Positions 1 through 28,887 are shown, numbered from the stretch's first letter. The stretch is DNA of 28,901 bases from Bacteroidales bacterium (GCA_038330665.1 JBBQOG010000001.1:1-28901); one strand, 5' to 3'. Notes: generated from the sequence alone by a model not told the origin. Translations and numbers: made by a program.

Positions 1-492
1 CTGGTGATGATAACAGGTAAGGAAGTACAGTATGGTTCTTACGAACAGATGGGTGTCGAAATTAAGGTTACCGAGGCCCAGGCAAAGGTCCAGAATCAAC
101 TTACAGGGACGAATCAATTTATGGCGAAGGTTAGTGCTAAAAGCGACCTGGGTGCGATCAATTCTGTGATGGTATATGACAAGGCTAACCTGAATTTTTA
201 TGTTGGCAGCATTGGCGACCTGCAGGCGGTGATGTCGACAGATCAACTGTCACGTATTCTTATGAGCTCCGGTGGGTTCGGTTCCACTGTGTTGGGGATC
301 GCATACATGGCCAAAGATGGACTTAATATGGTTGCTTCGCAATATGACCTGTTGGGTGACTTTATGGCCCGCGAACTAGGTTCTGTATTCAATGCAAGTC
401 AGCTAAATATCTTTTACAGTTCAGAACAAAATCTTGGAGGAACTGTCTGGTCCGCCACTCTCCAGCAAACCATAAACTTTATCGGGTTGTAA
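1..492 (+). CDS. 5'-truncated C-terminal repeat tail of a membrane-anchored protein family member (related to 710-1810 and 1875-3092)
   Basis: The frame is open from base 1 (CTG GTG ATG...) to TAA at 490-492. It shares VMVYDKANL(N/S)F..(G/A)...DLQ with 1875-3092 and has the same short x-L-[G/N/Q/S] unit structure. The N-terminal region lies outside the window, so paralogy rests on the tail only. Confidence 0.8.
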   Translation: MVMITGKEVQYGSYEQMGVEIKVTEAQAKVQNQLTGTNQFMAKVSAKSDLGAINSVMVYDKANLNFYVGSIGDLQAVMSTDQLSRILMSSGGFGSTVLGIAYMAKDGLNMVASQYDLLGDFMARELGSVFNASQLNIFYSSEQNLGGTVWSATLQQTINFIGL

Positions 493-513
493 AACATCTC
501 GGAACGAATGGGG

Positions 514-546
514 AAAAGGGTGAGTCAATGGATTCACCCTTTTTTG
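514..546 (+). terminator. Rho-independent terminator (possibly bidirectional)
   Basis: AAAAGGGTGAGTC-AATG-GATTCACCCTTTTTT: a stem with one G-U pair followed by a T-run, about 20 nt after the stop at 492. Confidence 0.85.
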
Positions 547-709
547 TTGTGCCCATTGGATGAAGTGTGTCATTCGTCAAATAGCTTGCTCCCAAACCTG
601 TACCCGCCATCGATTTTTCTTACCTTCCGCCAACTTTTTCAAATTTAGTGGTAATTAAAGCAAGCATACAAAACCAAGTTTAACCAATTGTTTAAAGACC
701 TTTTACATC

Positions 710-1810
710 ATGAAAAAACAAACGAAAATAATCCTCGGCGCACTGGTCGTCGTGGTAATTGCCATTGTCGCCATCTCCCTGGGTTTTCCACCGGTACAAA
801 AGGGCGAATCTTCCGGAACATTCGGGAAAGCCGATAAGTACCACAAAAGTCAATTAACCGAAAAGGATGTTCAGTTAAGGAGCAAACTCACCGCCGATAC
901 CGCCCAGTTAAAGCAGATGATACAGGGATTGGCCTATTTTGCTGTTTTCACCAACGACGTGAGCAATAAAATTGACAGTTGCTTTGTGATGTTTCAGGAA
1001 AAGGGCCTCAACAGTCAGGACCTCGGATATTCCGATATGATGGCCCTCAAGGATTATTCCGCTTTTATCCGGAACAACAATAAAATACTGGTTAATACGA
1101 CCAATCTGCTGAGTGGGTTTTACTATCCCGAAACGGCTGATCAGTCGGTTGATGTGGAACAAAGTATGAGAGAGTTTGGCAATTATGTAAAAAATCTGAA
1201 CCAGAAAGATAAAGTCATTGAGCCAGCACTAAAGAGCATGGACCGCTTTATCAGTACCAACAAAATCCTGCAGGAACGGAAAGAGGAAATGCGGAAACTG
1301 AAAGGCATCCGCGACCAGCTGCTGATCAAAGGGGTACAACTCGGAGGGATGGTAGGCGATAAAAGCCTGATAAGCGGATTAAGTAGTCTTGCACTTCAAG
1401 CACAGCTGGGTTCCATCGGATCGCAGGAAAATAATCTTGGCATAATAAAAGCCCAGGGTAATTTGCAGGTTAATCTAATGAATTCGAAAGAGGCCTTGGG
1501 CCAGGTTAGTTTCATCAATTCACAGGTTTTAGGATATAACAGCACCATTCAGTCTTTCGAAATCAAAGCGGTTAATGCCGCTGCCGATTTGAATGGTATT
1601 TCTATCATCGCAGGCTTTGGCGGAATGGGTGTTGTCGTTATTTGCGCGAATTATAACATGAACTCCGCTACCGTCCAACAGGCATTCGGCAACGCACTGA
1701 ATGTAAATCTCATGAATGCAAACGGCCCATTAGGCGTTGGCTTTACCGCAAGCACTAACCTGGCGGGGATGGCACTATCTTTTAGCGGTCTTTGTTCCAC
1801 TTTATTGTAA
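710..1810 (+). CDS. Hypothetical membrane-anchored protein: N-terminal TM helix, conserved helical region, divergent repeat tail (paralog 2)
   Basis: 366-aa ORF. MKKQTK is followed by the hydrophobic IILGALVVVVIAIVAISLGFPP and then SSGTFGKADKY. It is colinear with 1875-3092 for ~229 aa; about 67 of the first 91 residues are identical by manual ungapped alignment. Confidence 0.9.
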   Translation: MKKQTKIILGALVVVVIAIVAISLGFPPVQKGESSGTFGKADKYHKSQLTEKDVQLRSKLTADTAQLKQMIQGLAYFAVFTNDVSNKIDSCFVMFQEKGLNSQDLGYSDMMALKDYSAFIRNNNKILVNTTNLLSGFYYPETADQSVDVEQSMREFGNYVKNLNQKDKVIEPALKSMDRFISTNKILQERKEEMRKLKGIRDQLLIKGVQLGGMVGDKSLISGLSSLALQAQLGSIGSQENNLGIIKAQGNLQVNLMNSKEALGQVSFINSQVLGYNSTIQSFEIKAVNAAADLNGISIIAGFGGMGVVVICANYNMNSATVQQAFGNALNVNLMNANGPLGVGFTASTNLAGMALSFSGLCSTLL

Positions 1811-1874
1811 TAAGTAAGAACCTTACGAGGAATTAAGCAACCACTTACTCACCTGAGAACCAATTTATATTCTG

Positions 1875-3092
1875 ATGAAATCAAGGAAAAAAATCATTTT
1901 TGGCGCGTTGATCGTTCTGGCGATAGCCATACTAGCTGTCTCCCTCGGATTTCCGCCGGCATTAAAGGGAATCAGTTCCGGAACATTCGGAAAGGCCGAT
2001 AAGTACCGCAAGAGTCAAATGACCGAAAAAGATATTCAGCTTAGGAGTGAACTCACTGCCGATACTGCAAAACTGAGATCTATGATTCAAGGTCTCGTTT
2101 ATTTCACCGTTTTCACCGAAGATCTGAGCAATAAAATGGATTCCTGTGTGAGCGAATTCCAACTGAAAGGAATGACCAGCCAGGATGCGGGCTATGCCAA
2201 AGTCATGCTTCTAAAGGATTATGTTGATTATATGAGGAACAGCAACGTAACCCTCGGAAGCACCATCAACCTGTTGGCCGGTTTTTACGGAAATAACCAG
2301 GCCGACCAATCGGTTGATGTGGATAAAACCCTTCGGGATTTCGGAAATTATGTTAAAACCCTGCTTGAAAAGGATTCGATACTGGAACCGGCTTTGGTAA
2401 GTATGGATCATTTTATGCTGACGAGTAGCCTCGTGAAAGATAGAAAGGAGGAACTGATAAGTCTGAAATCTATCCGCGACCAACTCCTCATCCAGGGAAT
2501 TGAGCTTTGCGGCCTGATTGGTGCCCCGTCGCTCTGTGCTAATCTGACGAGTTATGGGATTGATTCTCAGGCCAACTTCAACAGCGTCTTGCTCTTCTCC
2601 AGGGAAAAGGATTTATCGGCTGTTCTGGGCGGGGGTGCCCTGTTGTTCAGCCAGGAAAAAATTGAAGCCATTGCCAGCGTAGGCATGCTTTTTGCGAATC
2701 CGGGATCTTTAGGAGGGATCAAATCAATTCATATCAATGCTAAAGAGGACCTGCAAATTCACTTAACAGGCGTCATGGTTTATGATAAGGCAAACCTGTC
2801 ATTTCATTTTGCAAGACCATCTGATCTTCAGCGTGTAATTGCAAGTTCAAATAGCCTCGATGTGAGGAGCGTGTTGGGTTTGTCGTCGAGCGGCCTTCAA
2901 ATTGAACTTTCGAATTTCAACCCGGCACTGATGGCGTGGTCTTCGGAACACTCAATAGGAAATGTGCTGAAATACAATCAGCTGTATGGCGTGTCGGCAG
3001 TAGCCCTCAATGTGGCTGACTTGCAGAACCTGATTCGTTCTGTTTCGTTGGTCAATGCGAGTGCGGAGCTCAAAACGGGTTATGGTGAGTGA
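1875..3092 (+). CDS. Hypothetical membrane-anchored protein: N-terminal TM helix, conserved helical region, divergent repeat tail (paralog 3)
   Basis: 405-aa ORF with the same N-terminal architecture as 710-1810. The tail starts at about 2562 and cannot be aligned to the paralog 2 tail except in unit pattern. Confidence 0.9.
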   Translation: MKSRKKIIFGALIVLAIAILAVSLGFPPALKGISSGTFGKADKYRKSQMTEKDIQLRSELTADTAKLRSMIQGLVYFTVFTEDLSNKMDSCVSEFQLKGMTSQDAGYAKVMLLKDYVDYMRNSNVTLGSTINLLAGFYGNNQADQSVDVDKTLRDFGNYVKTLLEKDSILEPALVSMDHFMLTSSLVKDRKEELISLKSIRDQLLIQGIELCGLIGAPSLCANLTSYGIDSQANFNSVLLFSREKDLSAVLGGGALLFSQEKIEAIASVGMLFANPGSLGGIKSIHINAKEDLQIHLTGVMVYDKANLSFHFARPSDLQRVIASSNSLDVRSVLGLSSSGLQIELSNFNPALMAWSSEHSIGNVLKYNQLYGVSAVALNVADLQNLIRSVSLVNASAELKTGYGE

Positions 3093-3134
3093 AGACCAAA
3101 TAAATGATGTAAATTGGATCCTAAACCAAACCCT

Positions 3135-6086
3135 ATGAAATTCAAATTATTTTGCCCGGGATTCCTGCTCCTTTGCGTGGTTGCTCTTCCCGGGTTTGCT
3201 CAGCAAAAAATTGTGCTGCAGCAATACCAGACGGACCATGTGAAGCTGATGTTCATGGATAAAAACACGTCCTACCTGGTGCCTCATACGGTACGCTCCT
3301 TCGAGAATGCACTGGCTTTTCATCAACAATTCTGGGATTATACCCCCTCCGGACCCACAAATATTTTGTTCAACGATTTTTCGGATGTCGGAAACGGCGG
3401 AACCATGGTCATCCCCTGGAACTTCCTGAATATTGGCGTATCCCCGTTTGATTACACCTACTCAGTTGTTCCCTCCAATGAGCGCATGCAATGGCTGATG
3501 AGCCACGAACTCGCCCACCAGGTGATGTGCGATAAAAATTCAAAATCCGACCGGATTTTTCAGAAAATTCTCGGCGGGAAAGTGATGCCCGATAACCGTG
3601 ATCCCCTTTCCCTGGTTTACAGCTACTTTACTACCCCGCGCTGGTACTCCCCGCGCTGGTACCACGAGGGCATCGCTGTGTTTATGGAAACCTGGATGTC
3701 GGGTGGGGTGGGCCGCGTAATGGGCGGATATGACGAGATGGTTTTCCGGACCATGGTGCGCGACAGCAGCTATTTCTATCATGTAATCGGACTGGAGACC
3801 GAAGGAACTACCGTTGACTTTCAGGTGGGCGTTAATTCCTATCTGTATGGAACCCGGTTCGATGCCTATCTGGCCCACCAGTATGGCCCCGATAAGCTGA
3901 AGGAGTTTTATTCAAGAACCGATACCAGCAAGAGATTCTATGCCAGCCAGTTTAAGGAGGTGTATAAAATACCCGTTGAACAGGAGTGGAAAAAATGGAT
4001 CGGCTGGGAGAAAAGCTTTCAGCAGGCCAACCTGGCACAGATCGCCGAACAACCTGTAAGCACCTACCGGAAGATTGTAGATAAACCACTGGGATCAGTC
4101 TCAAGGCCCTGGGTCGACAAAGCATCGGGCAAAGTGTATGTGGCCGTGAACTATCCCGGTAAACTGGCGCATATCGCCCGAATCGATGTGAAAACCGGTG
4201 CCATGGAAAAAGTGGCGGCCGTACCCAGCCCGAGTCTCTATTACGTAACCAGTCTCACCTACGACGATTCCACCAAAACCCTCTTTGCCTCCACCCATAA
4301 CAACGACTGGAGGGGGCTCGAGTCGATCAATGCCGAAACGGGCCGGGTAACTAAACTGATTCCTTTTGACCGGGCCGGCGGCCTGGTGTTTAACAATAAA
4401 GACCGCGCTATTTACGGGGTCCAGAGCATGAGCGGCCGATCAACCCTCATCCGCATCCTTCCACCATATAAAAAATGGGACGATCTGTACACCCTTCCTT
4501 TCGGTAAGGATTTTTCCGATCTGGATATATCCCCCGATGGGCAACTGCTCACCGGTACCCTGTCGGATATCCAGGGCCGCCAAAAACTGGTGCTGTTCCG
4601 TATTGCCGACCTCCTGGCCGGGAATACCGGTTTTAAGGAGATCTATGAATTTGAAGATAACCCGGCGGCTAATTTTGTGTTTTCCCCCGATGGCAAATTT
4701 CTTTACGGAACCTCTTATTATACAGGAGTTTCGAACGTATTCAGGATTTCCCTGGAAACCCTGACCCCCGAAATTCTTACCAATGCCACCAGCGGATTCT
4801 TCCGACCGATCCCGGTTTCGAAAGATTCTATGCTGATCATGGAATATACCCCCGCAGGGATGATAGCCGGGATGATGAAGATTAATCCCCTGGCCGACGT
4901 GAATGCCATCGAATACCTGGGACAAAAAATATTCAACAAATACCCGCAAGTGGAATCCTGGATTCTGCAACCCCCGTCGAAGATCAACCTCGATTCCCTG
5001 AAGGTGACCGAAAAGGTTTATCATCCGATGAAAGAGATGAAACTGGCCAATGCCTATCCCATCATTCAGGGCTATAAAAATTATGTGGCCGGCGGATACC
5101 GGCTGAATTTTATGGATCCGATCGGACTCAACGCACTGAATCTGAAATTGTCTGTTTCACCCTACGATTCATTGCCCAATAAGCAAAAGGTTCACCTGTC
5201 AGTGGATTACAATTATTGGAGCTGGACCTTTTCAGCTACCTATAACTATGCCGACTTCTATGATCTTTTCGGACCTACCAAATTCAGTCGCGCCGGCTAC
5301 TCCTTTACCGCCAAATATTATAAAATGTTTAACCGGATGGCCCCCTCCAAAACAGAACTGCACGTGAGGCTGAGCGCATACGGTGATCTGGAAACCCTGC
5401 CATCGTACCAGAATATTGCGTCGGATTTTAAAAACATGTATATCGGCGTGGTCAATTACCATAAAAGCTATTTACGGAAATCCCTTGGTGCCATCGAGCC
5501 GGAACAGGGCTACGACTGGAATGTTTATGCCTATACCAGCTTCGCCACCAGTCCGACCGAACAAGCATTCTATCCGCAGCTGATCAATAATTTTGATTTC
5601 GGGTTCCTGCTCCCGATGCGGAATTCAGCCATCTGGTTCCGGACTTCCGCCGGTCAGAGTTTTGGCGCATCCGATAAATCAAACTCGATGTTCTATTTCG
5701 GCGGATTCGGCAACAATTTCGTCGATTACCGCTCGGTTCAGCAATACCGCGATATGTCGAGCTTTCCGGGTGTGGAGATCGATCAGCTTTCCGCAATGAA
5801 TTATGGCAAACTCACCACCGAAATCAACTTAACCCCCATCCGTTTTCGCAAACTGGGATTCCTGGGTTTCTACTCCACCTATGCCCGGCTGTCGCTGTTC
5901 GGAATGGGCCTGATCACCGATGTCGCAAACACCCGCGATCAAAGGAATTACTTTGCCTCAGGGGTTCAGCTCGACTTCGAACTGGTCATGTTTTCACTGC
6001 TGAAATCGACCCTTTCATTTGGCTACTCCAGAGCCTACATTCCGGGAACCCCCGCCGACCAATTCATGGTATCGCTGAAGCTGTAA
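3135..6086 (+). CDS. Outer-membrane protein: gluzincin (MA-like) metallopeptidase + beta-propeller (TolB/PD40-like) + Omp85-like beta-barrel
   Basis: Signal peptide MKFKLF...PGFA|QQ from ATG 3135. HELAH at 3504-3518 and downstream WYHEGIA give the gluzincin HExxH...E pattern. Propeller-like repeats (DISPDG, FSPDGKFLY) follow. The C-terminal ~350 aa has alternating aromatic/hydrophobic strands and FYFGG...SFPG, resembling Omp85 loop 6. Confidence 0.75.
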   Translation: MKFKLFCPGFLLLCVVALPGFAQQKIVLQQYQTDHVKLMFMDKNTSYLVPHTVRSFENALAFHQQFWDYTPSGPTNILFNDFSDVGNGGTMVIPWNFLNIGVSPFDYTYSVVPSNERMQWLMSHELAHQVMCDKNSKSDRIFQKILGGKVMPDNRDPLSLVYSYFTTPRWYSPRWYHEGIAVFMETWMSGGVGRVMGGYDEMVFRTMVRDSSYFYHVIGLETEGTTVDFQVGVNSYLYGTRFDAYLAHQYGPDKLKEFYSRTDTSKRFYASQFKEVYKIPVEQEWKKWIGWEKSFQQANLAQIAEQPVSTYRKIVDKPLGSVSRPWVDKASGKVYVAVNYPGKLAHIARIDVKTGAMEKVAAVPSPSLYYVTSLTYDDSTKTLFASTHNNDWRGLESINAETGRVTKLIPFDRAGGLVFNNKDRAIYGVQSMSGRSTLIRILPPYKKWDDLYTLPFGKDFSDLDISPDGQLLTGTLSDIQGRQKLVLFRIADLLAGNTGFKEIYEFEDNPAANFVFSPDGKFLYGTSYYTGVSNVFRISLETLTPEILTNATSGFFRPIPVSKDSMLIMEYTPAGMIAGMMKINPLADVNAIEYLGQKIFNKYPQVESWILQPPSKINLDSLKVTEKVYHPMKEMKLANAYPIIQGYKNYVAGGYRLNFMDPIGLNALNLKLSVSPYDSLPNKQKVHLSVDYNYWSWTFSATYNYADFYDLFGPTKFSRAGYSFTAKYYKMFNRMAPSKTELHVRLSAYGDLETLPSYQNIASDFKNMYIGVVNYHKSYLRKSLGAIEPEQGYDWNVYAYTSFATSPTEQAFYPQLINNFDFGFLLPMRNSAIWFRTSAGQSFGASDKSNSMFYFGGFGNNFVDYRSVQQYRDMSSFPGVEIDQLSAMNYGKLTTEINLTPIRFRKLGFLGFYSTYARLSLFGMGLITDVANTRDQRNYFASGVQLDFELVMFSLLKSTLSFGYSRAYIPGTPADQFMVSLKL

Positions 6087-6150: not shown

Positions 6151-6184
6151 AGGTCCCATGCGAATTTCATCTGCAAAAGTTTTG

Positions 6185-6192
6185 TACATTTA
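6185..6192 (+). promoter_or_regulatory. Putative Bacteroidota sigma-A -7 element (TACATTTA)
   Basis: One mismatch to TAnnTTTG, about 22 nt upstream of ATG 6215. Confidence 0.45.
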
Positions 6193-6214
6193 TGCAGAAT
6201 TCTTTACCACTCCT

Positions 6215-6736
6215 ATGCAACCTAAACTATCTTTTCCCTTACTCCTGTTATGTTTCCTGGGCATTCTTGCCGGTTGTGCAAAAAGTGACGATGAATCAGT
6301 GCTGAAAGCGGCCGAACTGGCAAAAAACAAAGAAATTGCCCTGGCAGTGGTCCACGCCTCCGCTGTGGGTCTGGGCGAAACACTGAAAAACTTTCCGGAT
6401 TCCGCCAGTGGCGTGCTGTATATCAGGACCTACATCGATTCCATCCGATTTTACCCCGATAAATCCGGATATTTCTATGTATATGACTATCAGTGCATTA
6501 ACATCGCGCATGCTACACAAAAGAATCTCCAGGGGACCAACCTGTATAATCACCAGGATACCAAGGGTAAATATGTGGTGCGCGAACTATCCGCAGCCGC
6601 AAGAGCAGGCGGTGGATTTGTCGAATTTTACTGGATCAAACCTGGTGAAACAGGTGAAAAGCTCAAGATCGGATACGTGGAGCCAATCCCCGGTACCAAC
6701 TACTGGATCGGATCCGGAGTTTATGTTCCGGAATAA
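6215..6736 (+). CDS. Stand-alone single-Cache (sCache_2-type) lipoprotein
   Basis: From ATG 6215: MQPKLSFPLLLLCFLGILAG-C is a lipobox. GYFYVYD...HAT..NLQGTNL....DTKGKY, GGGFVEFYWIKPG, KIGYV and WIGSGVY match the sCache_2 pattern. There is no TM helix or output domain. Confidence 0.85.
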   Translation: MQPKLSFPLLLLCFLGILAGCAKSDDESVLKAAELAKNKEIALAVVHASAVGLGETLKNFPDSASGVLYIRTYIDSIRFYPDKSGYFYVYDYQCINIAHATQKNLQGTNLYNHQDTKGKYVVRELSAAARAGGGFVEFYWIKPGETGEKLKIGYVEPIPGTNYWIGSGVYVPE

Positions 6737-6792: not shown

Positions 6793-7848
6793 ATGAAACG
6801 GATCTTGATTATTGTAGGGATTGCAGTGGTAATAGGCATTCTGATCTGGTTAAAGATATCTGTTTTCACGACTAAAACGGAAAAAGCTGCCCCATCGAAT
6901 ATCGTTCCTGCCATCCCCGTGGAATGCTTTGTGGTTAAGGATACCGCGGTGAACTATCAGCTGGAAACCGTCGGCACCCTCACCGCACGTGAGCACGTGG
7001 ATATTGTGAGCGAAATCTCGCGGAAAGTGGTCAAAATCCCGATGAAGGAGGGTGCCCGGGTACAGGCCGGACAACTCCTGTTCCAGTTGGATGATGCCGA
7101 TATCGTGACCCGGATCAACAAACTGAAAATTGAACTCGAACTGGCCGAAGCCAATGAAGGCCGCGAAAAAATCCTGCTCGGAAAAGGGGGAATCAGCCAG
7201 GAACGTTTCGAAGAAGTCTCCAGCCGGCGAAAAACCCTTCAGGCCGAAATCGAAGTGCTTAAGGTCGACCTGTCGAAAACCAGCATCCGGGCACCGTTCA
7301 ACGGACAGATCGGATTGCGTTCGGTGAGCGAGGGTGCGCTGGTCAATCCCGGTACCATCCTGGCCAATCTTCAGGATATCAGCCGAATGAAAATTGATTT
7401 TTCGATACCGGAACGATACTCCCACGATCTGAAAGCCGGTGATCCGGTGCGGTTCCGCACCGACTATCTTCCGGATATTCTTACCGCTACCGTAGAGGCG
7501 ATTGAACCGTCGGTGGATACCCGAACCCGGACCCTCCTGATTCGCGCGGAGGCAGATAACCGAAGCAGCGGACTGGTTCCCGGAACTTCTGCAAAGGTTA
7601 TGCTTACCCTAAAGGAACAAACCCCCGGGCTTTACGTGCCCACCTCTGCACTCATGCCATCAATTAAAGGGTACACCGCATTTCTTATCAAAAACAGTCA
7701 GGCCCTTATGGTAACGGTAAAAACCGGAGTCAGGAACGATGAATATGTGGAAGTGCTGGAGGGTGTCGGTCGTGGCGATTCGCTGGTGACCACCAACCTG
7801 CTCCGAGTGAAAAACGGATCGCCGCTCAAAGCGGTAAAAAACCATTGA
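6793..7848 (+). CDS. RND efflux periplasmic adaptor (membrane fusion protein)
   Basis: N-terminal TM, biotinyl-lipoyl-like halves (EGARVQAGQLLFQLD; IRAPFNGQIG) flanking a coiled coil, and IEPSVDTRTRT. First gene of an MFP-RND-TolC operon. Confidence 0.93.
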   Translation: MKRILIIVGIAVVIGILIWLKISVFTTKTEKAAPSNIVPAIPVECFVVKDTAVNYQLETVGTLTAREHVDIVSEISRKVVKIPMKEGARVQAGQLLFQLDDADIVTRINKLKIELELAEANEGREKILLGKGGISQERFEEVSSRRKTLQAEIEVLKVDLSKTSIRAPFNGQIGLRSVSEGALVNPGTILANLQDISRMKIDFSIPERYSHDLKAGDPVRFRTDYLPDILTATVEAIEPSVDTRTRTLLIRAEADNRSSGLVPGTSAKVMLTLKEQTPGLYVPTSALMPSIKGYTAFLIKNSQALMVTVKTGVRNDEYVEVLEGVGRGDSLVTTNLLRVKNGSPLKAVKNH

Positions 7849-7849
7849 G

Positions 7850-10800
7850 ATGAGCCTTTCATCCACCAGCATAAACAAGCCGGTACTGGCAATCGTCTTT
7901 ACCCTGCTGATTCTCATTTTTGGCATCGTCAGCTTCTTTTACCTGGGTATCCGCGAATATCCCGAAATGGATCCACCGGTTGTTACGGTCACCACCACCT
8001 ATTCCGGTGCCAACCCCGAGATCATCCAGGCCCAGATTACCGAGCCCCTCGAAGATGCCCTCAACGGCATCGAAGGCATCCGCGTGGTGTCGTCGGTATC
8101 GAACGACCAGTCGAGCCTGATCACCGTGGAATTCAACCTGGGCAAGGAGATGGAGTCGGCGGCAAATGACGTCCGCGACCGCGTTTCCAAAGCCATCAAG
8201 TTGCTGCCCAAGGATGTGGATCCGCCGATCGTGGAGAAACTCAGCGCCAACGCCAATCCCATCATCTTCATGATAGTACGCAGTTTTGAGCACAATATCA
8301 TGGAGGTGAACGACTTGGTCGAAAACACGATCAAACCCCGACTGCAAACCATCCCCGGGGTGGGGGATATCAAGTTATTCGGCGAAAAGAAGTACTCCAT
8401 GCGCCTATGGCTCGATCCTTTTAAAATGTCGTCCGCCGGAATCACCGCCCTCGATGTGGAGCGTGCTGTGAGCCGCGAAAATATTGAGCTGCCCTCCGGT
8501 CGTATCGAAGGGTCGCTTACCGAGCTCACGATACGCACGCTGGGATTGCTAACCACCCCGGAACAGTTTAATAATGTGATTATTAAGCAGGAAAATGGCA
8601 ATATCGTACGGATTTCAGATATCGGGAATGCCGAGTTGTATCCCGAAAACGACCGTTCCGCGGTCATGGTCGACCACCTGCCCGTAGTGGCCATCGGTGT
8701 GATTCCGCAAACCGGAGCCAATAATATCGCCATCTCCAATGAATTTTATAAAAGGATGGAAACCCTCAGCAAAGAGATTCCTTCCACCTATGAAGTTAAG
8801 ATCGGCTACGATTTTACCCGTTTTGAGCGGGGAGCCGTAAAAGAGGTGCAGCAAACCATGCTGTTATCCTTGCTCCTGGTGGTGCTGATCATTTTCATTT
8901 TCCTGCGCGACTGGCGGTCGACCGTCATTCCCGTAGTGGCCATCCCGGTTTCCATCATCGGCTCCTTCATCATCATGGCCCTCATGGGGCTCACCATTAA
9001 TGTGCTCACCCTCCTGGCTATTGTACTGGCCATCGGGCTCGTTTGTGACGATGCCATCGTGGTACTCGAAAATATCTATACCAAGATTGATACGGGTATC
9101 CATCCGATAGTGGCGGCCCATAAGGGGATGAAGGAGATCTTTTTTGCCGTGATCTCCACCACCATCACCCTGGCCGCAGTGTTCCTTCCGGTGATGTTCC
9201 TGCAGGGACTCATCGGCCGGCTGTTCAAGGAATTTGCCATCGTGGTGGCTGGCTCGGTGCTGATCTCCGCCTTCGTGGCCCTCACCCTCACCCCGATGAT
9301 GTGTTCACGTATCCTTAAACGACAACGCCACCTGAATTCAAGCTGGCTGATGGAGAAAACGGAACCGTTTTTCCTCTCCCTGAACCGCGGATACCGCTAT
9401 TCGCTCAAAGCTTTCATGAGTCAACGATGGCTGGTATTCCCGATTTTTGTGGTACTGATATTCCTCATCGGTCTGTTTTATAAATCACTGCATTCGGAAC
9501 TGGCCCCGTTCGAAGATCGCTCCAATATCCGGATACCGGTGCTGGCTCCCGAAGGTTCATCATACGAATTCATGACCCACTACCTCGGTCAGCTGGATCA
9601 ATATGTCACCGATTCCTTTCCTGAAAAATCGGTAGCCTTTTCATGGATCTCCCCCGGAATGGGAACCATCGAAAATCCGAACAAGGCCCAGGAAATCATT
9701 TATTTGGTCGATCCCGACCAGCGAAAGCGCACCCAGCACGAGATGTTCAATAAGATGACCCGTGAATTGCCCGGCATCACCGGCATCCGGTCGTTCCCGT
9801 TTGAACCCCCCACTATTGGCGACCGTTTTGCCGGGCAGCCCGTTCAATATGTGCTGCTCGCAAACAGTCTGAAGGAACTCACCGACGTGCTTCCGAAATT
9901 TCTTGAGGAGGCCCGGAAAATTAAATCCCTGCAGTTCGTGGATGCGAACCTGAAAGTGAATAAACCGGAGCTCCGGATTACCATCGATCGCGAAAAAGCG
10001 GCGCAGCTGCAGGTTTCCACACAGGATATCGCCCGCACCATGCAACTGTCGATGAGTGATCAGCGCTACGGCTATTTCGTGATGGACGGCAAACAATATG
10101 AGATCATCGGACAGGTGATGCGCAATGACCGCGATAAACCCGCCGCCCTGAAAAACCTCTATGTCCGGAATACTTCGGGGGAGCTCATCTCGCTCGATAA
10201 CCTGATCCGGATAGAGGAGTCGGTCAACCCGGCGTCGATCTATTCGTTCAACCGGTATATTTCGGCCACCGTCACTGCTGGGCTCACCCCTGGCGCCACG
10301 CTGGGCGATGGTGTAAAGGCACTCAACTGGGTATCGAAAAAAGTGCTGCCCGCCACCATGAGCACCGCCCTCGCCGGTCAGTCGCGCGACTATGAGGAAA
10401 GCTCCTCGAGCCTGATATTCATCTTTCTGCTGGCTGTGGTGATGATCTTCCTGGTGCTGGCGGCACAGTTCGAAAGTTTTATCGATCCGCTCACCATCCT
10501 CTTTACCGTGCCGCTGGCCATTGCCGGAACCCTGTTTTCACTCTGGTATTTTAACCAGACACTCAACATATTCAGCGAGATCGGTATCATTATGCTGATC
10601 GGTCTCGTAACCAAAAATGGCATCCTGATCGTAGAGTTTGCCAACCAGCGTAAGGCTACCGGGATCGACAAAAATGAGGCGGTCCAGCGGGCGGCTATTT
10701 CCCGTTTCCGGCCCATCCTGATGACCTCATCTGCCATGGTGCTTGGCATTCTGCCGATCGCCCTCAGCCTGGGCTCCTCCTCCGAAAGCCGGCAGTCGCT

Positions 10801-10963
10801 GGGGATCGCCGTGGTGGGCGGACTGATCTTCGCAACTTTCCTGACCCTCTATATGATACCGGCCATCTATTCCTTTCTCTCCAGGAATCCGAAACTGGAC
10901 GTGATCGACTATACGCAGATGACCGTAGAAGCCGATTCCAATCAAACTGAGGAGGACTTTTAA
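7850..10963 (+). CDS. RND efflux permease, AcrB/MdtB-like (HAE1)
   Basis: 1037 aa with GIREYPEMDPPVVTV and the proton-relay residues LVCDDAIVVLEN, GLVTKNGILIVEFAN and RFRPILMT. Confidence 0.95.
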   Translation: MSLSSTSINKPVLAIVFTLLILIFGIVSFFYLGIREYPEMDPPVVTVTTTYSGANPEIIQAQITEPLEDALNGIEGIRVVSSVSNDQSSLITVEFNLGKEMESAANDVRDRVSKAIKLLPKDVDPPIVEKLSANANPIIFMIVRSFEHNIMEVNDLVENTIKPRLQTIPGVGDIKLFGEKKYSMRLWLDPFKMSSAGITALDVERAVSRENIELPSGRIEGSLTELTIRTLGLLTTPEQFNNVIIKQENGNIVRISDIGNAELYPENDRSAVMVDHLPVVAIGVIPQTGANNIAISNEFYKRMETLSKEIPSTYEVKIGYDFTRFERGAVKEVQQTMLLSLLLVVLIIFIFLRDWRSTVIPVVAIPVSIIGSFIIMALMGLTINVLTLLAIVLAIGLVCDDAIVVLENIYTKIDTGIHPIVAAHKGMKEIFFAVISTTITLAAVFLPVMFLQGLIGRLFKEFAIVVAGSVLISAFVALTLTPMMCSRILKRQRHLNSSWLMEKTEPFFLSLNRGYRYSLKAFMSQRWLVFPIFVVLIFLIGLFYKSLHSELAPFEDRSNIRIPVLAPEGSSYEFMTHYLGQLDQYVTDSFPEKSVAFSWISPGMGTIENPNKAQEIIYLVDPDQRKRTQHEMFNKMTRELPGITGIRSFPFEPPTIGDRFAGQPVQYVLLANSLKELTDVLPKFLEEARKIKSLQFVDANLKVNKPELRITIDREKAAQLQVSTQDIARTMQLSMSDQRYGYFVMDGKQYEIIGQVMRNDRDKPAALKNLYVRNTSGELISLDNLIRIEESVNPASIYSFNRYISATVTAGLTPGATLGDGVKALNWVSKKVLPATMSTALAGQSRDYEESSSSLIFIFLLAVVMIFLVLAAQFESFIDPLTILFTVPLAIAGTLFSLWYFNQTLNIFSEIGIIMLIGLVTKNGILIVEFANQRKATGIDKNEAVQRAAISRFRPILMTSSAMVLGILPIALSLGSSSESRQSLGIAVVGGLIFATFLTLYMIPAIYSFLSRNPKLDVIDYTQMTVEADSNQTEEDF

Positions 10964-12268
10964 ATGAAAAAGGCAGCCGTTACCGGATTATTGATTTGCC
11001 TGCTCGGGGGCTGGGCCCACGGCCAGCAACTGATGACCCTCGAGGAGGCGCTGAGTATTGGCCTGACGAATAATTACGGAATCATCATCTCGCAGAACTC
11101 CCTGCAGGAGGCGAAAAATAATGCCACGCCCGGAAATGCCGGAATGTTGCCTGTTGTTGGCGTCAATGCTGGGATCTCGAAAGGACTGAGTAATGCCCGT
11201 GTGAAGGTGCTCACCGGCAGTGAGCTGAATAACCCGGCTGCACTTTCCGATTTAACCACCGCCGGCGTGGGCATGACCTGGAAAGTATTCGACGGGTTGA
11301 AAATGTTCATCTCTTTTGATAAACTGCGAAAGCTCGAGGAAATCAGCGACTTAAGTGCTAAAAATACGCTCGAAAACACCATTGCCCGGATAATTGCCGG
11401 ATATTATGAGATCGTTCGGCAAAACCGGATTCAGCAGTTCCTCTCGGAGCAGGTGGAGATATCTGGTCTTCGCACCGATCTGGCCAAAATGCGCTACGAA
11501 ACCGGTTCGGGGTCGGAAATGGAATACCTCAAATCCCGCGTGGAACAAAATGCAGATATTGCCAGGCTTTCGGCACAGAAAACCCTCTGCGAAAACGCAA
11601 AAACCAGTTTGAATGATTTGATGGCACGGGAGGTAACCACCACTTTCCAGGTTCCCGATACCATCCCGGTGTCGGTGGCCCTGAATCCCGATTCCCTGCA
11701 CTGGTTAGTCAGATCCGCCAACACCGACCTGCTGATGGCCATGCGCAACCGCGATGCCGGGGCCCTGGATGTAAAATCAGCCCGTGCCAGCCAGTGGCCC
11801 ACACTCGATTACTTTGCCGGATACAACTATTACCACTCCGATACCGAGGCTAACTTCATCCAGTACAACCGGAATTTCGGCCCTTCGATGGGACTCTCGC
11901 TGAACATGAAAATTTTCGACGGGCAGAATCTGAAGCGGCAGTACAAGAATGCAGCACTCTCCCTGCAATCATACGATCTGGCTGTTCAACAGATGGAAAG
12001 CCGGCTCGGGGCTCATCTGGAAAAACTTTACAGCGAATACCTGGACCATCTGGAGGTGGTTCGGTTTGAAGAGGAAAACCTTCAACTGGCCATCCGGAAC
12101 ATGGACCTGGCACGGGAGAGCTTCCGCATCGGGTCCATCTCTTCCATCCAGATGAAAGGCGTTCAGGAGGACCTTCTGACGGCCAGAACCCGTCAGGTAA
12201 ATGCCCAATATCAGGTGAAACTCACTGAAACCGAATTAATGCTCCTCAGTGGGAAGCTTTTGCACTGA
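10964..12268 (+). CDS. TolC-family outer-membrane efflux protein
   Basis: Signal peptide ...WAHG|QQ, LTLEEALSIGLTNN, two OEP-like halves, RYETGSGSEMEY and FRIGSISSIQ. The start abuts the RND stop (TAAATG). Confidence 0.92.
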   Translation: MKKAAVTGLLICLLGGWAHGQQLMTLEEALSIGLTNNYGIIISQNSLQEAKNNATPGNAGMLPVVGVNAGISKGLSNARVKVLTGSELNNPAALSDLTTAGVGMTWKVFDGLKMFISFDKLRKLEEISDLSAKNTLENTIARIIAGYYEIVRQNRIQQFLSEQVEISGLRTDLAKMRYETGSGSEMEYLKSRVEQNADIARLSAQKTLCENAKTSLNDLMAREVTTTFQVPDTIPVSVALNPDSLHWLVRSANTDLLMAMRNRDAGALDVKSARASQWPTLDYFAGYNYYHSDTEANFIQYNRNFGPSMGLSLNMKIFDGQNLKRQYKNAALSLQSYDLAVQQMESRLGAHLEKLYSEYLDHLEVVRFEEENLQLAIRNMDLARESFRIGSISSIQMKGVQEDLLTARTRQVNAQYQVKLTETELMLLSGKLLH

Positions 12269-12340: not shown

Positions 12341-13228
12341 ATGTCAGTATTACCAAAAAGCCTGGAACAGGTTATAGAGGAACTCACCTCAGAGCTTAAG
12401 CTGAAGGATGCCCGGCTGGAGGAAACCCGGATGCAGCTTTTACAGGCTGAGAAAATGGCTTCGCTCGGGCAGCTCACTGCCGGTATTGCCCACGAAATAA
12501 AAAATCCGCTGAATTTTGTGAATAATTTCGCTGCTCTTACCGTCGACCTGACCGGTGAACTGGAGGAAGAACTTGAGAAGCTCACCGCTACCCTGTCGCC
12601 CGAGGATAGCGAGTACCTGAAGGAAATTGCCGGGGATATCCGGTCAAATGCACTCAAAATCCAGGACCATGGCAAACGTGCCGACAGTATCGTGAAAGGC
12701 ATGCTGCTGCATTCACGCGGTGATGCCGGAATCAAACAGCAGGCCGACATCAATGCCCTGCTGGCCGAATATGTGAGCCTCGGTTACCATGGAATGCGCG
12801 CACAGGATAACACCTTCAATATTAAGATAGAATCCCACTATGATGAAACCATCGGGATGGTCAATATCATCCCGCAGGATATCACGCGCGTTTTTCTGAA
12901 TATCATCAATAATGCCTGCTATTCCACGAATCTGAAAAAGAAGGATTTGCACGATGCCTATTCGCCAATCCTGGAGGTGCAGACCCGGAATCTGGGCGAA
13001 TCGGTCGAAGTACGGATTCGCGACAATGGAAAGGGAATTCCACAGGAAATCCTGGACAAGGTTTTTAACCCCTTTTTTACCACCAAGCCGGCTGGCGAAG
13101 GCACCGGGCTGGGACTCTCGCTGAGTTACGACATCATTGTAAAGGAGCATCAGGGCAGCATGAAGGTGGAATCGCGCGAGGGCGAATTTGCTGAATTCAT
13201 CCTGGAAATCCCAAAAAATCTTTTGTAA
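12341..13228 (+). CDS. Cytoplasmic histidine kinase without a sensor domain (HisKA + HATPase_c, NtrB-like)
   Basis: EKMASLGQLTAGIAHEIKNP (His codon 12491), N-box FLNIINNA, DNGKGI, FNPFFTTK and GEGTGLGLS. Only a ~35-aa coiled coil precedes the H-box, with no TM. Confidence 0.95.
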   Translation: MSVLPKSLEQVIEELTSELKLKDARLEETRMQLLQAEKMASLGQLTAGIAHEIKNPLNFVNNFAALTVDLTGELEEELEKLTATLSPEDSEYLKEIAGDIRSNALKIQDHGKRADSIVKGMLLHSRGDAGIKQQADINALLAEYVSLGYHGMRAQDNTFNIKIESHYDETIGMVNIIPQDITRVFLNIINNACYSTNLKKKDLHDAYSPILEVQTRNLGESVEVRIRDNGKGIPQEILDKVFNPFFTTKPAGEGTGLGLSLSYDIIVKEHQGSMKVESREGEFAEFILEIPKNLL

Positions 13229-13254: not shown

Positions 13255-14430
13255 ATGGATTATAATCAGAATGTAAAGGTCATGGTAGTCGACGATGAGG
13301 TCGACCTTGAACCTTTAATCCGGCAGAAATTCCGCCGCGAAATACGAAATGGACAATATGATTTTGTTTTTGCTCATAATGGTTTGGAAGCACTGGCCAG
13401 CCTGATCGAATATCCCGACATCGGAATTATTTTGTCCGATATCAACATGCCGGAGATGGATGGGCTCACCCTGCTCACCAAGCTGAAGGAGCTCAAGCAT
13501 CCCTCGCTGAAAACCGTCATCGTTTCCGCTTACGGCGATATGGAAAACATTCGTACTGCGATGAACCGGGGTGCTTTCGATTTTCTAACCAAGCCGATCA
13601 ATTTCGACGACCTGGAAATCACCATCAATAAAACCCTGGACGAAATCGTGGTCCAGCGAATGGCTATGCACGAGCACGACCAGCTGATTTCCATCCGCCA
13701 CGACCTGAATGTGGCCCGCGAAATTCAGCAGGGAATCCTTCCAAAGACTTTCCCGCCATTCCCCGGTCGGAATGATTTCGATCTGTTCGCCTCGATGACG
13801 GCAGCCAAGAGTGTGGGTGGCGATTTCTTCGACTTTTTCTTGATTGATCAGGACCGTCTCGGATTTGTGATCGGCGACGTATCCGGAAAAGGAATACCGG
13901 CCGCTATTTTTATGGCCGTCAGCCGCACGCTGATCCGCGCAACCGGTTTAAAGGGTATGCCGGCCGGCGAATGCCTGCAATATGCCAATAACCTGCTTTG
14001 CAATGAGAGCGTTTCTTGTATGTTCGTAACCGTGTTTTATGGCATCATGAACATGAAAACCGGAGAGCTGGAATATGCAAATGCCGGACATAACCCACCC
14101 TATATGATGCGGGGAGGAACCTCGATCGAAGTGCTCCAATCCACCGGCGATATCATTCTCGGTTGCTTCGAAGATCATCCTTACTCCACCAGTACGGTTC
14201 AGTTGAAACCCGGCGACGGGATATTGCTGTTCACCGATGGGGTAACCGAAGCGTTTAATAAGGCGGAAGAAGTATATGGCGAACCGCGGCTCGAAAGTCT
14301 GCTCACCGCTTCCCTGAAATTGAGCTCTGAACAGATTGTGAATGTGATTGTGGAGGATGTCAACCTTTATTCGACCGGTGTGCCTCAATCCGACGATATT
14401 ACCCTGCTTTCATTACGATACAATGGTTAA
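13255..14430 (+). CDS. Response regulator receiver + PP2C/SpoIIE phosphatase (RsbU/RsbP-like)
   Basis: Receiver motifs VVDDE, LSDINMP, SAYG and FLTKP. PP2C motifs VGGDFFD, IGDVSGKG, FTDGVTEA and SDDITLL. Confidence 0.95.
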   Translation: MDYNQNVKVMVVDDEVDLEPLIRQKFRREIRNGQYDFVFAHNGLEALASLIEYPDIGIILSDINMPEMDGLTLLTKLKELKHPSLKTVIVSAYGDMENIRTAMNRGAFDFLTKPINFDDLEITINKTLDEIVVQRMAMHEHDQLISIRHDLNVAREIQQGILPKTFPPFPGRNDFDLFASMTAAKSVGGDFFDFFLIDQDRLGFVIGDVSGKGIPAAIFMAVSRTLIRATGLKGMPAGECLQYANNLLCNESVSCMFVTVFYGIMNMKTGELEYANAGHNPPYMMRGGTSIEVLQSTGDIILGCFEDHPYSTSTVQLKPGDGILLFTDGVTEAFNKAEEVYGEPRLESLLTASLKLSSEQIVNVIVEDVNLYSTGVPQSDDITLLSLRYNG

Positions 14431-14448: not shown

Positions 14449-14871
14449 ATGAGTGAGCATAACCTGTCTATTACTAACCAATTATCCCAATTGGATGTCG
14501 TTGCAGAAGCGATTGAAGCCCTGTCGGAAGAGTGGGGGATTCCCATGGCGCTCGCTCTGAACCTAAACCTGGTGCTGGAGGAGCTGATTACCAATATCAT
14601 CTTTTATGGTTATTCTGATCAGGAGGAGCATACGATTTCCATTGGCCTCTCATTCGACGGTAATAGGATCCAAATGCAGCTTGAAGATGATGCAAAGGAG
14701 TTTGATCCGACCCTTCGGGCCGATCCTAAAATCGATGAGTCTATCGAGGAGAGGAATATCGGAGGCCTGGGAATTTACTTCGTTCGTAAAATTATGGACG
14801 GGATGACTTACCGGCGCTCGGGAAATAAGAATATTTTAACGCTCACAAAAAAAATTGAGAAAACCAATTAA
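14449..14871 (+). CDS. Anti-sigma-factor-type Ser/Thr kinase (RsbW/SpoIIAB-like, HATPase_c_2)
   Basis: LVLEELITNIIFYGY, LEDDAKEFDP and GGLGIYFVRKIMD; located between the PP2C and STAS genes. Confidence 0.92.
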   Translation: MSEHNLSITNQLSQLDVVAEAIEALSEEWGIPMALALNLNLVLEELITNIIFYGYSDQEEHTISIGLSFDGNRIQMQLEDDAKEFDPTLRADPKIDESIEERNIGGLGIYFVRKIMDGMTYRRSGNKNILTLTKKIEKTN

Positions 14872-15233: not shown

Positions 15234-16145
15234 ATGACACCTGATCCGGTCCATTTGCCCGATAAACTGATTCGGCACCTGAATACCCAGGCCAAGGCCA
15301 TATTCCGTGGCGAGTATTCCGGTGTCGACCAGATTTATCCCTTTATCGATAGCGGAGGTACACAGCCTGAAGTGGGTGAACTGGCGGAGAACTTCATTCT
15401 GATGACTACCAAGCTCGAGGCGCGCGAATTCGACCTCAATCGCAGAATCGAAGAGCTCAGCGAGAAAAATCAGGCGCTCACCGAGCTTTCACGACAACGT
15501 ACAGAGGGATCAGTCGTATTCTTTTCGCTGCTTTTCATCATGAGTCTCTTTACTTTTCTCATTGAGATTCTTCGGGTCGTGAGCCCTGCCAACAGCTCTA
15601 TTAAATTCATTGTTTTCCGCAGCACCGACCTGCTTTTTGTTCTCATCGGACTCTATTTCGTGTTTTTTACTAAACTTCCGTTCGCTAAATTTGGCCTGAA
15701 CCTGGATAGATGGAAAAAATCGCTCCTCGAAAGTTTAGCGGTAACCGGAGCTCTGGTGGTGCTGTTCGTAGGAATAAAATGGATGGCTGTTCGAATGGGC
15801 TGGATGGATGGCTCCAAAGGACTGGTGGATTTTAAAATCCTCGACTGGACCTTTATTCTTTACCTGCTGATCGCACCCCTGCAGGAATTCCTGGCCAGAG
15901 GAGTGTGCCTCACCTCTATCGAACGTAATATCACCGGAAGATTTGCCAAGCCGGGGGTCATCATTCTCTCCGCCCTGGTTTTTAGTTTACCCCACATGAC
16001 CTACTCACTCAGCTTTGCAGTTTGGACCCTCGGCGGAGGGATCATCTGGGGAATCCTGTATATGCGCCATCGAACGATTCTCGGCGTGAGCATCAGCCAT
16101 TACATCGCCGGAACACTGGCCTTTCTGTGCGGGTTTATCGGCTGA
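15234..16145 (+). CDS. N-terminal HAMP-like domain fused to a CPBP (CAAX/Abi) family membrane domain with degenerate motifs
   Basis: LIRHLNTQAKAIFRGEYS...EVGELAENFILMTTKLEARE reads as HAMP plus signalling helix. Several TM helices follow, with CPBP-like motifs QEFLARG, FSLPH and SHYIAG. Confidence 0.75.
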   Translation: MTPDPVHLPDKLIRHLNTQAKAIFRGEYSGVDQIYPFIDSGGTQPEVGELAENFILMTTKLEAREFDLNRRIEELSEKNQALTELSRQRTEGSVVFFSLLFIMSLFTFLIEILRVVSPANSSIKFIVFRSTDLLFVLIGLYFVFFTKLPFAKFGLNLDRWKKSLLESLAVTGALVVLFVGIKWMAVRMGWMDGSKGLVDFKILDWTFILYLLIAPLQEFLARGVCLTSIERNITGRFAKPGVIILSALVFSLPHMTYSLSFAVWTLGGGIIWGILYMRHRTILGVSISHYIAGTLAFLCGFIG

Positions 16146-16173
16146 CATCAGTCGCCCGAATGCTGAAACATAC

Positions 16174-16217
16174 GGATTTACCTCCAAAATTCCCCGGAAG
16201 TTTTGGGATTTAAATCC
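16174..16217. repeat. 44-bp imperfect inverted repeat, possible terminator or operator
   Basis: GGATTTA-cct-CCAAAATTCC-cc-GGAAGTTTTGG-gatt-TAAATCC. It also includes the perfect palindrome GGATTTAAATCC at 16206-16217. Confidence 0.55.
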
Positions 16218-16235
16218 GGGATTATCGTATCTTTA
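16202..16235 (+). promoter_or_regulatory. Putative sigma-A promoter (TTTG 16202-16205; TATCTTTA 16228-16235)
   Basis: Near-consensus -33/-7 pair upstream of ATG 16253. Confidence 0.45.
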
Positions 16236-16252
16236 AGAAAAACAACCCTGCC

Positions 16253-23944: not shown

Positions 23945-23969
23945 GTCTTGCATTTCCAAATGGTTATTC

Positions 23970-23997
23970 AGCCGACCCCCATGCGGAGGAGTCGTGG
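23970..23997 (-). promoter_or_regulatory. 5'-UTR RNA hairpin, copy 1 (CCACGACUCCU-CCGCAU-GGGGGUCGGCU)
   Basis: Lies between the promoter at 24026-24019 and the protease start; homologous to 28857-28887 with compensatory changes. Confidence 0.6.
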
Positions 23998-24018
23998 TTT
24001 TGGTTTGGTATTACCAAC

Positions 24019-24026
24019 CAAAGTTA
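24019..24026 (-). promoter_or_regulatory. Exact -7 element TAACTTTG driving the metalloprotease gene
   Basis: The reverse complement of caaagtta is TAACTTTG; a TTG lies 18 nt upstream (24047-24045). Confidence 0.6.
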
Positions 24027-24088
24027 TAGCGGAATTTATAAATTCAAGAAAATAAACAGATTAATTTACAAAGGGCCTCGAAAAGGAC

Positions 24089-28779: not shown

Positions 28780-28856
28780 AACTTCCGGTTTTGAACCGGC
28801 CAAAAATACATAATATGTTTTGCTATCAATAAAAAAAGGGATAAAACTCAGGATAG

Positions 28857-28887
28857 AGCCACCTCCGAACATTTGAGGAGGTCGTGG
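28857..28887 (-). promoter_or_regulatory. 5'-UTR RNA hairpin, copy 2 (CCACGACCUCC-UCAAAUGUUC-GGAGGUGGCU)
   Basis: Upstream of the type B CTD gene; same 5' arm and same stem register as 23970-23997. Confidence 0.6.

Follow-up and report, generated by a model that had tools for sequence, protein, structure and literature searches.

Tail proteins and a peptidase-Omp85-type outer-membrane protein as partners in an apparent sigma factor/PrsW module of Bacteroidales

Introduction

What do tandem genes for apparently membrane-anchored proteins, alike in their N-terminal regions and unlike in their tails, have to do with the outer-membrane protein encoded directly after them? The question is raised by the first 6086 nucleotides (nt) of the window, a stretch of 28,901 nt that forms the start of contig C1 in an assembly from a Bacteroidales bacterium (GCA_038330665.1, JBBQOG010000001.1:1-28901; 484 contigs, 3.38 Mb, 82.6% complete). 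Here genes for paralogous "tail proteins" precede a large gene whose product combines a zinc peptidase, a β-propeller and a predicted Omp85-type barrel. The original prediction, made from the sequence alone, was of a two-partner-like secretion route, in which the paralogs would be cut by the peptidase and their tails would leave the cell through the barrel. We conclude that the paralogs and the large protein are dedicated partners, and that the paralogs look more like the sensing arm of a sigma factor/PrsW module than like export cargo.

The question matters beyond this genome. Omp85 proteins with both a propeller and a peptidase have had no function assigned to them since they were catalogued in 2014, and how trouble at the outer membrane is passed on to transcription in double-membrane bacteria outside the Proteobacteria is largely unknown. 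The module described here offers fixed and testable parts, namely a sigma factor with a recognisable promoter box, an anti-sigma factor, PrsW, tail proteins and an outer-membrane peptidase, as well as a precise candidate motif for cleavage and fusion variants that occur naturally. Among the carriers, G018 has a closed 5.4-Mb genome in a single contig.

Results

Linkage of the paralogs and the large gene

Three samples of genomes were examined: 40 relatives, 301 genomes sampled evenly from the order (about 150 families), and 401 genomes of the phylum. Among the relatives, the N-terminal domain (N-domain) of the paralogs was found in 14, and the large protein in the same 14 and, as a fragment at a contig edge, in one more; 25 have neither. 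The co-occurrence test proposed with the original prediction gave the same picture across the order, with both genes in 20 genomes, the paralog alone in one fragmentary genome, and neither in the other 280. The two genes are adjacent in nearly all carriers in the order, with one to four tandem copies of the paralog.

The full-length large protein is also present in about 36 genomes of the phylum sample, mostly of other classes. The N-domain profile matches in 15 genomes of other classes, in 12 of them over the first ~60 residues only, which hold the transmembrane helix and the juxtamembrane motif; nevertheless, 14 of the 15 matches sit directly upstream of the large gene. In the exception, G592, two tail-protein genes (G592:C2, 1457240-1459237) lie 334 kb from the large gene (1791798-1794713). 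Because of this joint presence and absence, and the adjacency across the genome samples, we regard the paralogs and the large protein as dedicated partners, as had been claimed.

Ties to an anti-sigma factor

The claim of at least three tandem related genes holds as two complete paralogs, here numbered 2 and 3, and the end of a third, paralog 1, with which the window opens. Contig C117 breaks off within a further copy of the N-domain (67% identity; C117:1-753, minus strand), which very probably represents the 5' half that the paralog 1 gene lacks in the window. Sequence overlap and shared k-mers were sought between the two contig ends and none were found, so that the join of C117 to the start of the window is inferred only.

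In the orientation of the window, the order of genes on C117 is PrsW, extracytoplasmic function (ECF) sigma factor, anti-sigma factor and the 5' half of paralog 1. The PrsW gene (C117:2189-3190), directly upstream of that for the sigma factor, scores 74.8 bits with PF13367 (cut-off 23.5); the assembly has no other member of this family. The sigma factor (C117:1548-2093) matches Sigma70_r2 and Sigma70_r4_2. The anti-sigma factor encoded downstream of it has 286 amino acids (aa) and one predicted transmembrane helix, at residues 121-139; it has no Pfam match of its own. Conservation of its N-domain extends to every cluster.

Three observations tie the paralogs to this anti-sigma factor and its sigma factor. 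First, when 16 anti-sigma sequences sampled across the phylum (14-48% identity) are aligned, a single column is invariant, the Gly of an x-G-(T/S)-hydrophobic motif located 10-25 residues after the membrane helix. The paralog N-domain has only four invariant columns, G36 and T37 among them, and these stand in the same position relative to the membrane helix as the motif in the anti-sigma factor. Second, the two proteins occur fused to each other. In P0080, a protein of 544 aa encoded on 12 contigs, an anti-sigma N-domain is followed by a complete tail protein; this N-domain has 35% identity with the anti-sigma factor of the present genome (E 8e-25), and the P0080 gene lies between those for the sigma factor and the large protein in a PrsW-sigma-fusion-large-RsbW-STAS cluster, where it is the sole anti-sigma candidate. 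The same type of fusion is found in two further 50%-identity clusters and, in other classes, in loci L022, L023 and L027.

The third observation is a duplicated promoter-like box. A box of the form CCAAC-T/C-T/A, 15-16 nt, TA-A/T-TT is found 27 nt before the ATG of the sigma gene in this genome and its relatives, and in its extended 16-nt form it has exactly two copies in the 3.38-Mb assembly, one before the sigma gene on C117 and the other before paralog 2. Extra copies stand 5' of internal paralogs in L004 and L036. On C117 (2094-2126, minus strand; locus L045) the box abuts the ATG of the sigma gene, and the distance of 27 nt from box start to ATG is constant in several genomes, which could mean that the sigma mRNA has no leader or that the start codon is wrongly annotated.

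The array had been seen as one tandem set. Its members do share a strand, but paralogs 1 and 2 are separated by a strong hairpin (-20.8 kcal/mol, z -4.78; none of 200 shuffles folds as well), which was missed by a consensus terminator scan, found by eye and confirmed by folding. The array would therefore be two transcription units. There is no terminator-like site in the 42-nt gap before the large gene, in agreement with the original prediction. A search for RNA runs containing the stretch returned sediment DNA runs only.

The tail proteins

Paralogs 2 and 3 have 60% identity over residues 1-232 and are unalignable beyond. The conserved helical N-terminal region that had been described is thus a 232-aa domain, and in an AlphaFold 2 (AF2) model of a paralog, built from an alignment of 37 sequences, residues 2-24 form a helix, 29-46 are disordered and 51-239 make up long helices; the tail is poorly predicted and includes a single small sheet around a YDKANL motif. 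A near-invariant segment, S-S-G-T-F-G-K-A-D-K-Y, falls in the disordered stretch. The N-terminal hydrophobic run, of about 20 residues, has a length fitting an anchor and in this respect suits the uncleaved membrane helix originally proposed; many members of the family, however, have an A/G-x-S/A triplet at the close of the run, so that the helix may be cleaved.

The tails had been called hypervariable and repetitive. They evolve much faster than the N-domain and, as stated, cannot be aligned between paralogs 2 and 3, yet they are not random: among 118 tails of the family, that of paralog 1 has 76 BLAST relatives and that of paralog 3 has 12, compared with none for that of paralog 2. The part common to the paralog 1 fragment and the paralog 3 product is a single 39-aa stretch of tail (46% identity). 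The repeat is weak, a periodicity of 9-10 residues seen in the spacing of hydrophobic-[GNQS] dipeptides and in the autocorrelation of hydrophobicity. Across the family the tails are rich in Gly (10%), Ser (13%), Gln (9.5%), Asn (8%) and Leu (13%), with about 11% Asp, Glu, Lys and Arg together and 1.2% Pro. The paralog 2 tail (1406-1810) lacks the YDKANL module, has 13% Asn and is nearly uncharged.

No named family had been recognised for these proteins, and Pfam, NCBIfam and the protein atlas indeed give no match. A Foldseek search of the PDB with the paralog model returned generic helical bundles only (best E 0.2). The N-domain profile matches 502 clusters (50% identity) among 1.84 billion representatives, and the tail-protein family is thus of modest size as well as unnamed.

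The large protein

The large protein, 983 aa when counted from the ATG at 3135 (a TTG at 3114 is also open), begins with a signal peptide that ends at A-Q, before a further Q. The description of an intact HExxH...E peptidase, a propeller and an Omp85-like barrel is borne out, the last by predicted fold only.

In the peptidase domain none of the zinc-site residues H124, E125, H128 and E178 varies among 28 homologues, whose identity goes as low as 52%. HELAH occupies residues 124-128 and E178 lies inside W-Y-H-E-G-I-A, which is similar to the W-x-x-E-G-x-A box of M1 peptidases; 49 residues separate it from HELAH, compared with 18 between HExxH and the third-ligand Glu in M1 enzymes. Pfam Peptidase_M1 scores 13.4 bits, below its cut-off of 27.7, a profile search of the PDB gives a weak match to IRAP at the xEGxA motif (E 0.13), and the domain has low pLDDT in the AF2 model. 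The propeller, at residues ~310-585, is six-bladed and TolB-like (Foldseek E 3e-9; VIA Z 21.9, root-mean-square deviation 2.9 over 245 residues), and its matches dominate whole-model VIA and Foldseek searches.

The C-terminal region is predicted to be a 16-strand Omp85-type barrel, with the strands lying between residues 636 and 982 of the AF2 model and pLDDT mostly 70-90. POTRA domains are absent from the model, in which the helical peptidase-like domain and the propeller precede the barrel. A long loop between strands 11 and 12, residues 842-888, holds the invariant residues Y854, F855, G856, F858, N861, R872, F877, P878 and G879; the (V/L/I)RG(F/Y) motif of Omp85 loop 6 was sought in it and no RG(F/Y) is present. 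Whole-chain matches among predicted structures (AFDB and Atlas; TM-score 0.74-0.86) come from many phyla and are annotated as PD40, Omp85/D15 and Peptidase MA-like. Sequence profiles do not assign the barrel to Pfam PF01103. This family has no match to the large protein at E <= 0.1, and a scan of the genome with it finds five other genes and not this one. Alignment of the barrel by hhalign with two of those five barrels is not significant (E 0.42 and 0.23), profiles of the barrel and of the N-terminal domain find only the weak IRAP match and noise in the PDB, and phmmer gives no useful match there.

Neighbouring genes

A survey of gene neighbourhoods at about 35 loci of the phylum, by means of reference proteins and Pfam, reveals a recurrent set comprising an RsbW-like kinase, a STAS protein, the ECF sigma factor, the anti-sigma factor, one or more tail proteins, the large protein and PrsW, with a response regulator-PP2C protein nearby. 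PrsW adjoins the pair of paralog and large gene, or lies within a few genes of it, in nearly all the loci inspected. In 13 of them its gene comes immediately after the large gene, and most of the rest have it shortly before the whole set. Homologues of the response regulator-PP2C protein stand beside the pair in L006-L008, L012, L025-L028 and L030. The partner-switching trio of PP2C phosphatase, HATPase_c_2 kinase and STAS protein is found together in the window (Table 1), and many loci have all or some of these three beside the pair.

Table 1. Features of the first 17,047 nt of the window, in window coordinates
Feature	Position	Strand	Remarks
Paralog 1, 3' part	1-492	+	Open reading frame open at its 5' end, 163 aa of tail; probable 5' half at C117:1-753 (minus strand)
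Terminator-like hairpin and U-tract after paralog 1	503-552	+	Folding compared with shuffles
Second copy of the ECF-type promoter box of the module	624-656	+	16-nt extended box including CCAACTTTTT, spacer, TAATT; about 55 nt 5' of paralog 2
Paralog 2, 366 aa	710-1810	+	Hydrophobic helix at the N-terminus, then juxtamembrane G-T-F motif, helical N-domain and an orphan tail rich in N, G and A
Paralog 3, 405 aa	1875-3092	+	N-domain as in paralog 2; tail with small conserved YDKANL module
Large outer-membrane protein, 983 aa	3135-6086	+	Signal peptide, M1-like gluzincin domain, TolB-like propeller, predicted Omp85-type barrel
Free sCache-domain protein	6158-6736	+	Next gene after the large gene; likewise in three of the four closest relatives examined (L004, L005, L014)
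Resistance-nodulation-division (RND) efflux cassette: adaptor, AcrB-type pump, outer-membrane factor	6793-12268	+	Between the large gene and the phospho-switch genes
Histidine kinase core, HisKA and HATPase_c	12341-13228	+	Domain matches
Response-regulator receiver fused to SpoIIE/PP2C phosphatase, RsbU-like	13255-14430	+	Domain matches
HATPase_c_2 kinase, RsbW-like	14449-14871	+	Domain matches
STAS-domain protein, RsbV-like, 108 aa	14883-15209	+	PF01740, E 3.5e-23
CPBP/Rce1-like membrane protease and free sensor-domain protein	15234-17047	+	Same sensor-domain protein after STAS in L046

The RND efflux cassette is a lineage-specific insert, its adaptor and pump being found at this place in all four of the closest relatives (L004, L005, L014 and L015) and absent from more distant loci. 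The sCache gene, too, is missing from those distant loci. Right after the STAS gene, positions 15234-16145 encode a CPBP/Rce1-like membrane protease. This family is distantly related to PrsW (PMC3482391), and the module may hold a second intramembrane protease here.

Other genes nearby can be noted briefly. On C117 (3187-6087, minus strand; L045) a 966-aa open reading frame, an odd fusion of a GPP34-like domain with a molybdopterin oxidoreductase, overlaps the start of the PrsW gene by 4 nt. In the fusion-type cluster of L046 (11676-12383), and also in L047, a 235-aa protein with a weak Gcw_chp match takes the place of the sCache gene after the large gene. The remainder of the window, 17110-28872, carries items of type IX secretion: a He_PIG protein and a 1459-aa matrixin (M10), each with a Por_Secre_tail and the latter also with TIG and cadherin-like domains, as well as a PorP/SprF gene and a 1270-aa SprB/CHU_C protein.

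Discussion

What, then, might the paralogs and the large protein do? The reading that we favour, and to which we would give about an even chance, is that both are parts of a signalling module that works by regulated proteolysis. The gene linkage, the motif common to paralogs and anti-sigma factor, the fusions and the duplicated promoter box are all observed; from these we infer every proteolytic step in what follows.

The module would be organised in two transcription units, the first made up of PrsW, ECF sigma factor, anti-sigma factor and paralog 1 and closed by the terminator, and the second of the sigma-type promoter, paralogs 2 and 3 and the large gene, with the partner-switching set beyond the inserted efflux pump. 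We propose that each paralog is a copy, standing on its own, of the extracytoplasmic arm of the anti-sigma factor, because of the G-T-hydrophobic motif that the two have in common and because whole paralogs are found fused behind an anti-sigma domain. PrsW would cut both the anti-sigma factor and the paralogs at or near the G-T motif, a site-1 cleavage like that of RsiW. At the other side of the periplasm, the barrel would hang the zinc peptidase and the propeller from the outer membrane, where they may bind or trim the long, uncharged and flexible tails, and this action on the tails would set whether PrsW can act. The freed sigma factor would then transcribe its own operon and, from the second promoter, paralogs 2 and 3 and the large gene. 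The barrel would serve as an anchor, perhaps also as a sensor of the state of the outer membrane, rather than as an export pore, and the presence of several paralogs would provide alternative sensing arms or competing substrates for PrsW.

The choice of PrsW as the protease is guided by location. Its active site lies within membrane-spanning helices and the motif is close to the inner membrane, and for this reason PrsW is a better candidate than the peptidase anchored in the outer membrane for a cut 10-25 residues from the inner membrane. In its most specific form, put forward tentatively and with less confidence than the general reading, the proposal is of a proteolytic relay across the envelope. 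The Omp85-anchored zinc peptidase would trim tails that span the periplasm, the state of the tails would gate PrsW at the G-T motif, and ECF sigma activity would so come to reflect outer-membrane or periplasmic conditions, while the free paralogs would compete as tunable substrates.

Several points weigh against a signalling role. With only about 6 residues in the cytoplasm, the free paralogs cannot by themselves signal inward; a part as sensing arm, decoy or co-substrate is conjecture. In many loci, L006-L012, L016, L033 and L034, PrsW, paralog and large gene occur without an adjacent sigma/anti-sigma pair, so that these three may form a core with a separate function, on which the sigma factor merely reports. 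Signal peptidase, or some other protease, might just as well recognise the G-T motif. To these can be added a prediction of the complex between residues 24-600 of the large protein and 25-405 of paralog 3, although its score of 0.00 counts neither for nor against binding.

Could the pair instead serve to maintain the envelope? The large protein would in that case be a periplasmic protease for quality control or the handling of outer-membrane proteins, a platform resembling BamA and BamB with a peptidase added, and the paralogs would be its adaptors or chaperone-like partners anchored in the inner membrane; sigma factor, anti-sigma factor and PrsW would do no more than regulate expression under stress. 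The existence of the trio in many loci without an adjacent sigma gene fits this, as does the placing of the pair under the second copy of the sigma promoter, in the manner of a regulon output. By Heinz & Lithgow (PMC4104836), moreover, WD40-Omp85 proteins are likened to a BamA-BamB fusion, and a role in quality control is suggested, albeit for a different subfamily, the Omp85-metalloproteases. What such a role leaves unexplained is the motif common to paralogs and anti-sigma factor, the fusions between them, and the persistence of PrsW beside the pair where the sigma gene is missing. We therefore consider it unlikely, though it comes next after the proteolytic signalling module.

The secretion route originally proposed fares less well. 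Paralogs tethered in the inner membrane would be recognised through their N-terminal region and cut by the zinc peptidase, and the tails or peptides derived from them, perhaps forming fibres or amyloid-like structures, would leave through the Omp85-type barrel. Several observations would fit such a scheme: the strict co-occurrence and adjacency of the two genes, the constant N-domain with its diverging tails in one to four tandem copies, the intact zinc ligands, and tails of low charge, rich in Gly, Ser, Gln, Asn and Leu and nearly free of Pro, that would suit extended or amyloid-like chains. Some members of the Omp85 superfamily, FhaC and PlpD, do translocate (PMC4104836). Against this, the paralogs have no two-partner secretion (TPS) domain, and the large protein has neither POTRA domains nor a plug helix. 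The most conserved segment of the paralogs would be at the inner membrane, far from the outer-membrane peptidase and beside the active site of the ever-present PrsW, and the facts that this segment is common to the anti-sigma factor, and that the paralog is elsewhere fused to an anti-sigma domain, fit signalling and not cargo. The complex prediction gave no answer on binding here either. The whole context (PrsW, sigma factor, anti-sigma factor, motif, fusions and promoter) points to signalling, export of the tails through the barrel finds no support, and we regard the secretion route as very unlikely.

That paralogs and large gene are functionally unlinked, and neighbours by chance or through mere synteny in one lineage, is scarcely credible given their joint presence and absence over 301 genomes and about 150 families, and given that they stay adjacent in other classes, in which no more than ~60 residues of the partner are recognisable.

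Two other candidates were rejected. The tails are of low complexity and not enzyme-like, and immunity genes are absent, so that these are not polymorphic toxin cassettes. The anchor motif of TolA and TonB holds a His; no His was seen in the anchor helices here when the alignments were inspected by eye, and an energised tether of that type was set aside.

Comparison with known systems

How much of this has been described before? No paper linking PrsW to an Omp85-family protein or to the tail family was found in the full-text literature searched, and the ECF reclassification paper (PMC7826278) does not mention PrsW, nor do the passages found in it link any ECF group to such proteins. The module is widespread and appears to be undescribed in that literature. 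The novelty originally claimed does not extend to the barrel architecture, however, which has been known since 2014 as that of the WD40-Omp85 subfamily defined by Heinz & Lithgow (PMC4104836), whose accessible sections give neither function nor partner genes for it. Omp85 subfamilies with WD40 and peptidase domains are also listed in a paper of 2024 (PMC11358297). The protein described here is like the WD40-Omp85 proteins in its C-terminal 16-strand barrel, predicted in our case, and in having a TolB-like propeller in place of POTRA domains. It differs in that its clade falls below the PF01103 threshold and lacks the (V/L)RG(F/Y) motif in loop 6.

Two-partner secretion systems (TpsA/TpsB, FhaB/FhaC) resemble the present pair in that the gene for an Omp85-superfamily barrel stands beside that for a dedicated partner with a conserved N-terminal part and a variable remainder. 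In contrast with those systems, the barrel protein here is without POTRA domains or plug helix, and the N-terminal part of its partner is a bundle of α-helices behind a membrane helix, not a β-helical TPS domain behind a signal peptide. Neither Pfam nor NCBIfam matches a TPS (haemagglutination activity) domain in the paralogs, whose N-domain is modelled as long helices.

A functional analogy may be drawn with cell-surface signalling by FecA, FecR and FecI. Those systems too have an outer-membrane protein with a periplasmic extension, a single-pass anti-sigma factor in the inner membrane that is proteolysed, and an ECF sigma factor that drives neighbouring genes. The outer-membrane part here is an Omp85-type barrel with peptidase and propeller, however, and not a TonB-dependent transducer, while the anti-sigma factor is not FecR-like and the candidate site-1 protease is PrsW.

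The closest comparison for the inner-membrane side is with sigma-W, RsiW, PrsW and RasP of Bacillus subtilis, where PrsW carries out the site-1 cleavage of RsiW (PMC3482391). Both systems have an ECF sigma factor, a single-pass anti-sigma factor directly downstream and a PrsW-family protease encoded together with them, and here a conserved extracytoplasmic site near the membrane is a plausible target for site-1 cleavage. In the present module no site-2 protease is encoded in the cluster, a partner-switching set is often present, and the motif stands only 10-25 residues outside the membrane and occurs also in proteins that are not anti-sigma factors. Above all, the organism here has two membranes, and the module has two extra constant parts, the tail proteins and a zinc peptidase anchored in the outer membrane.

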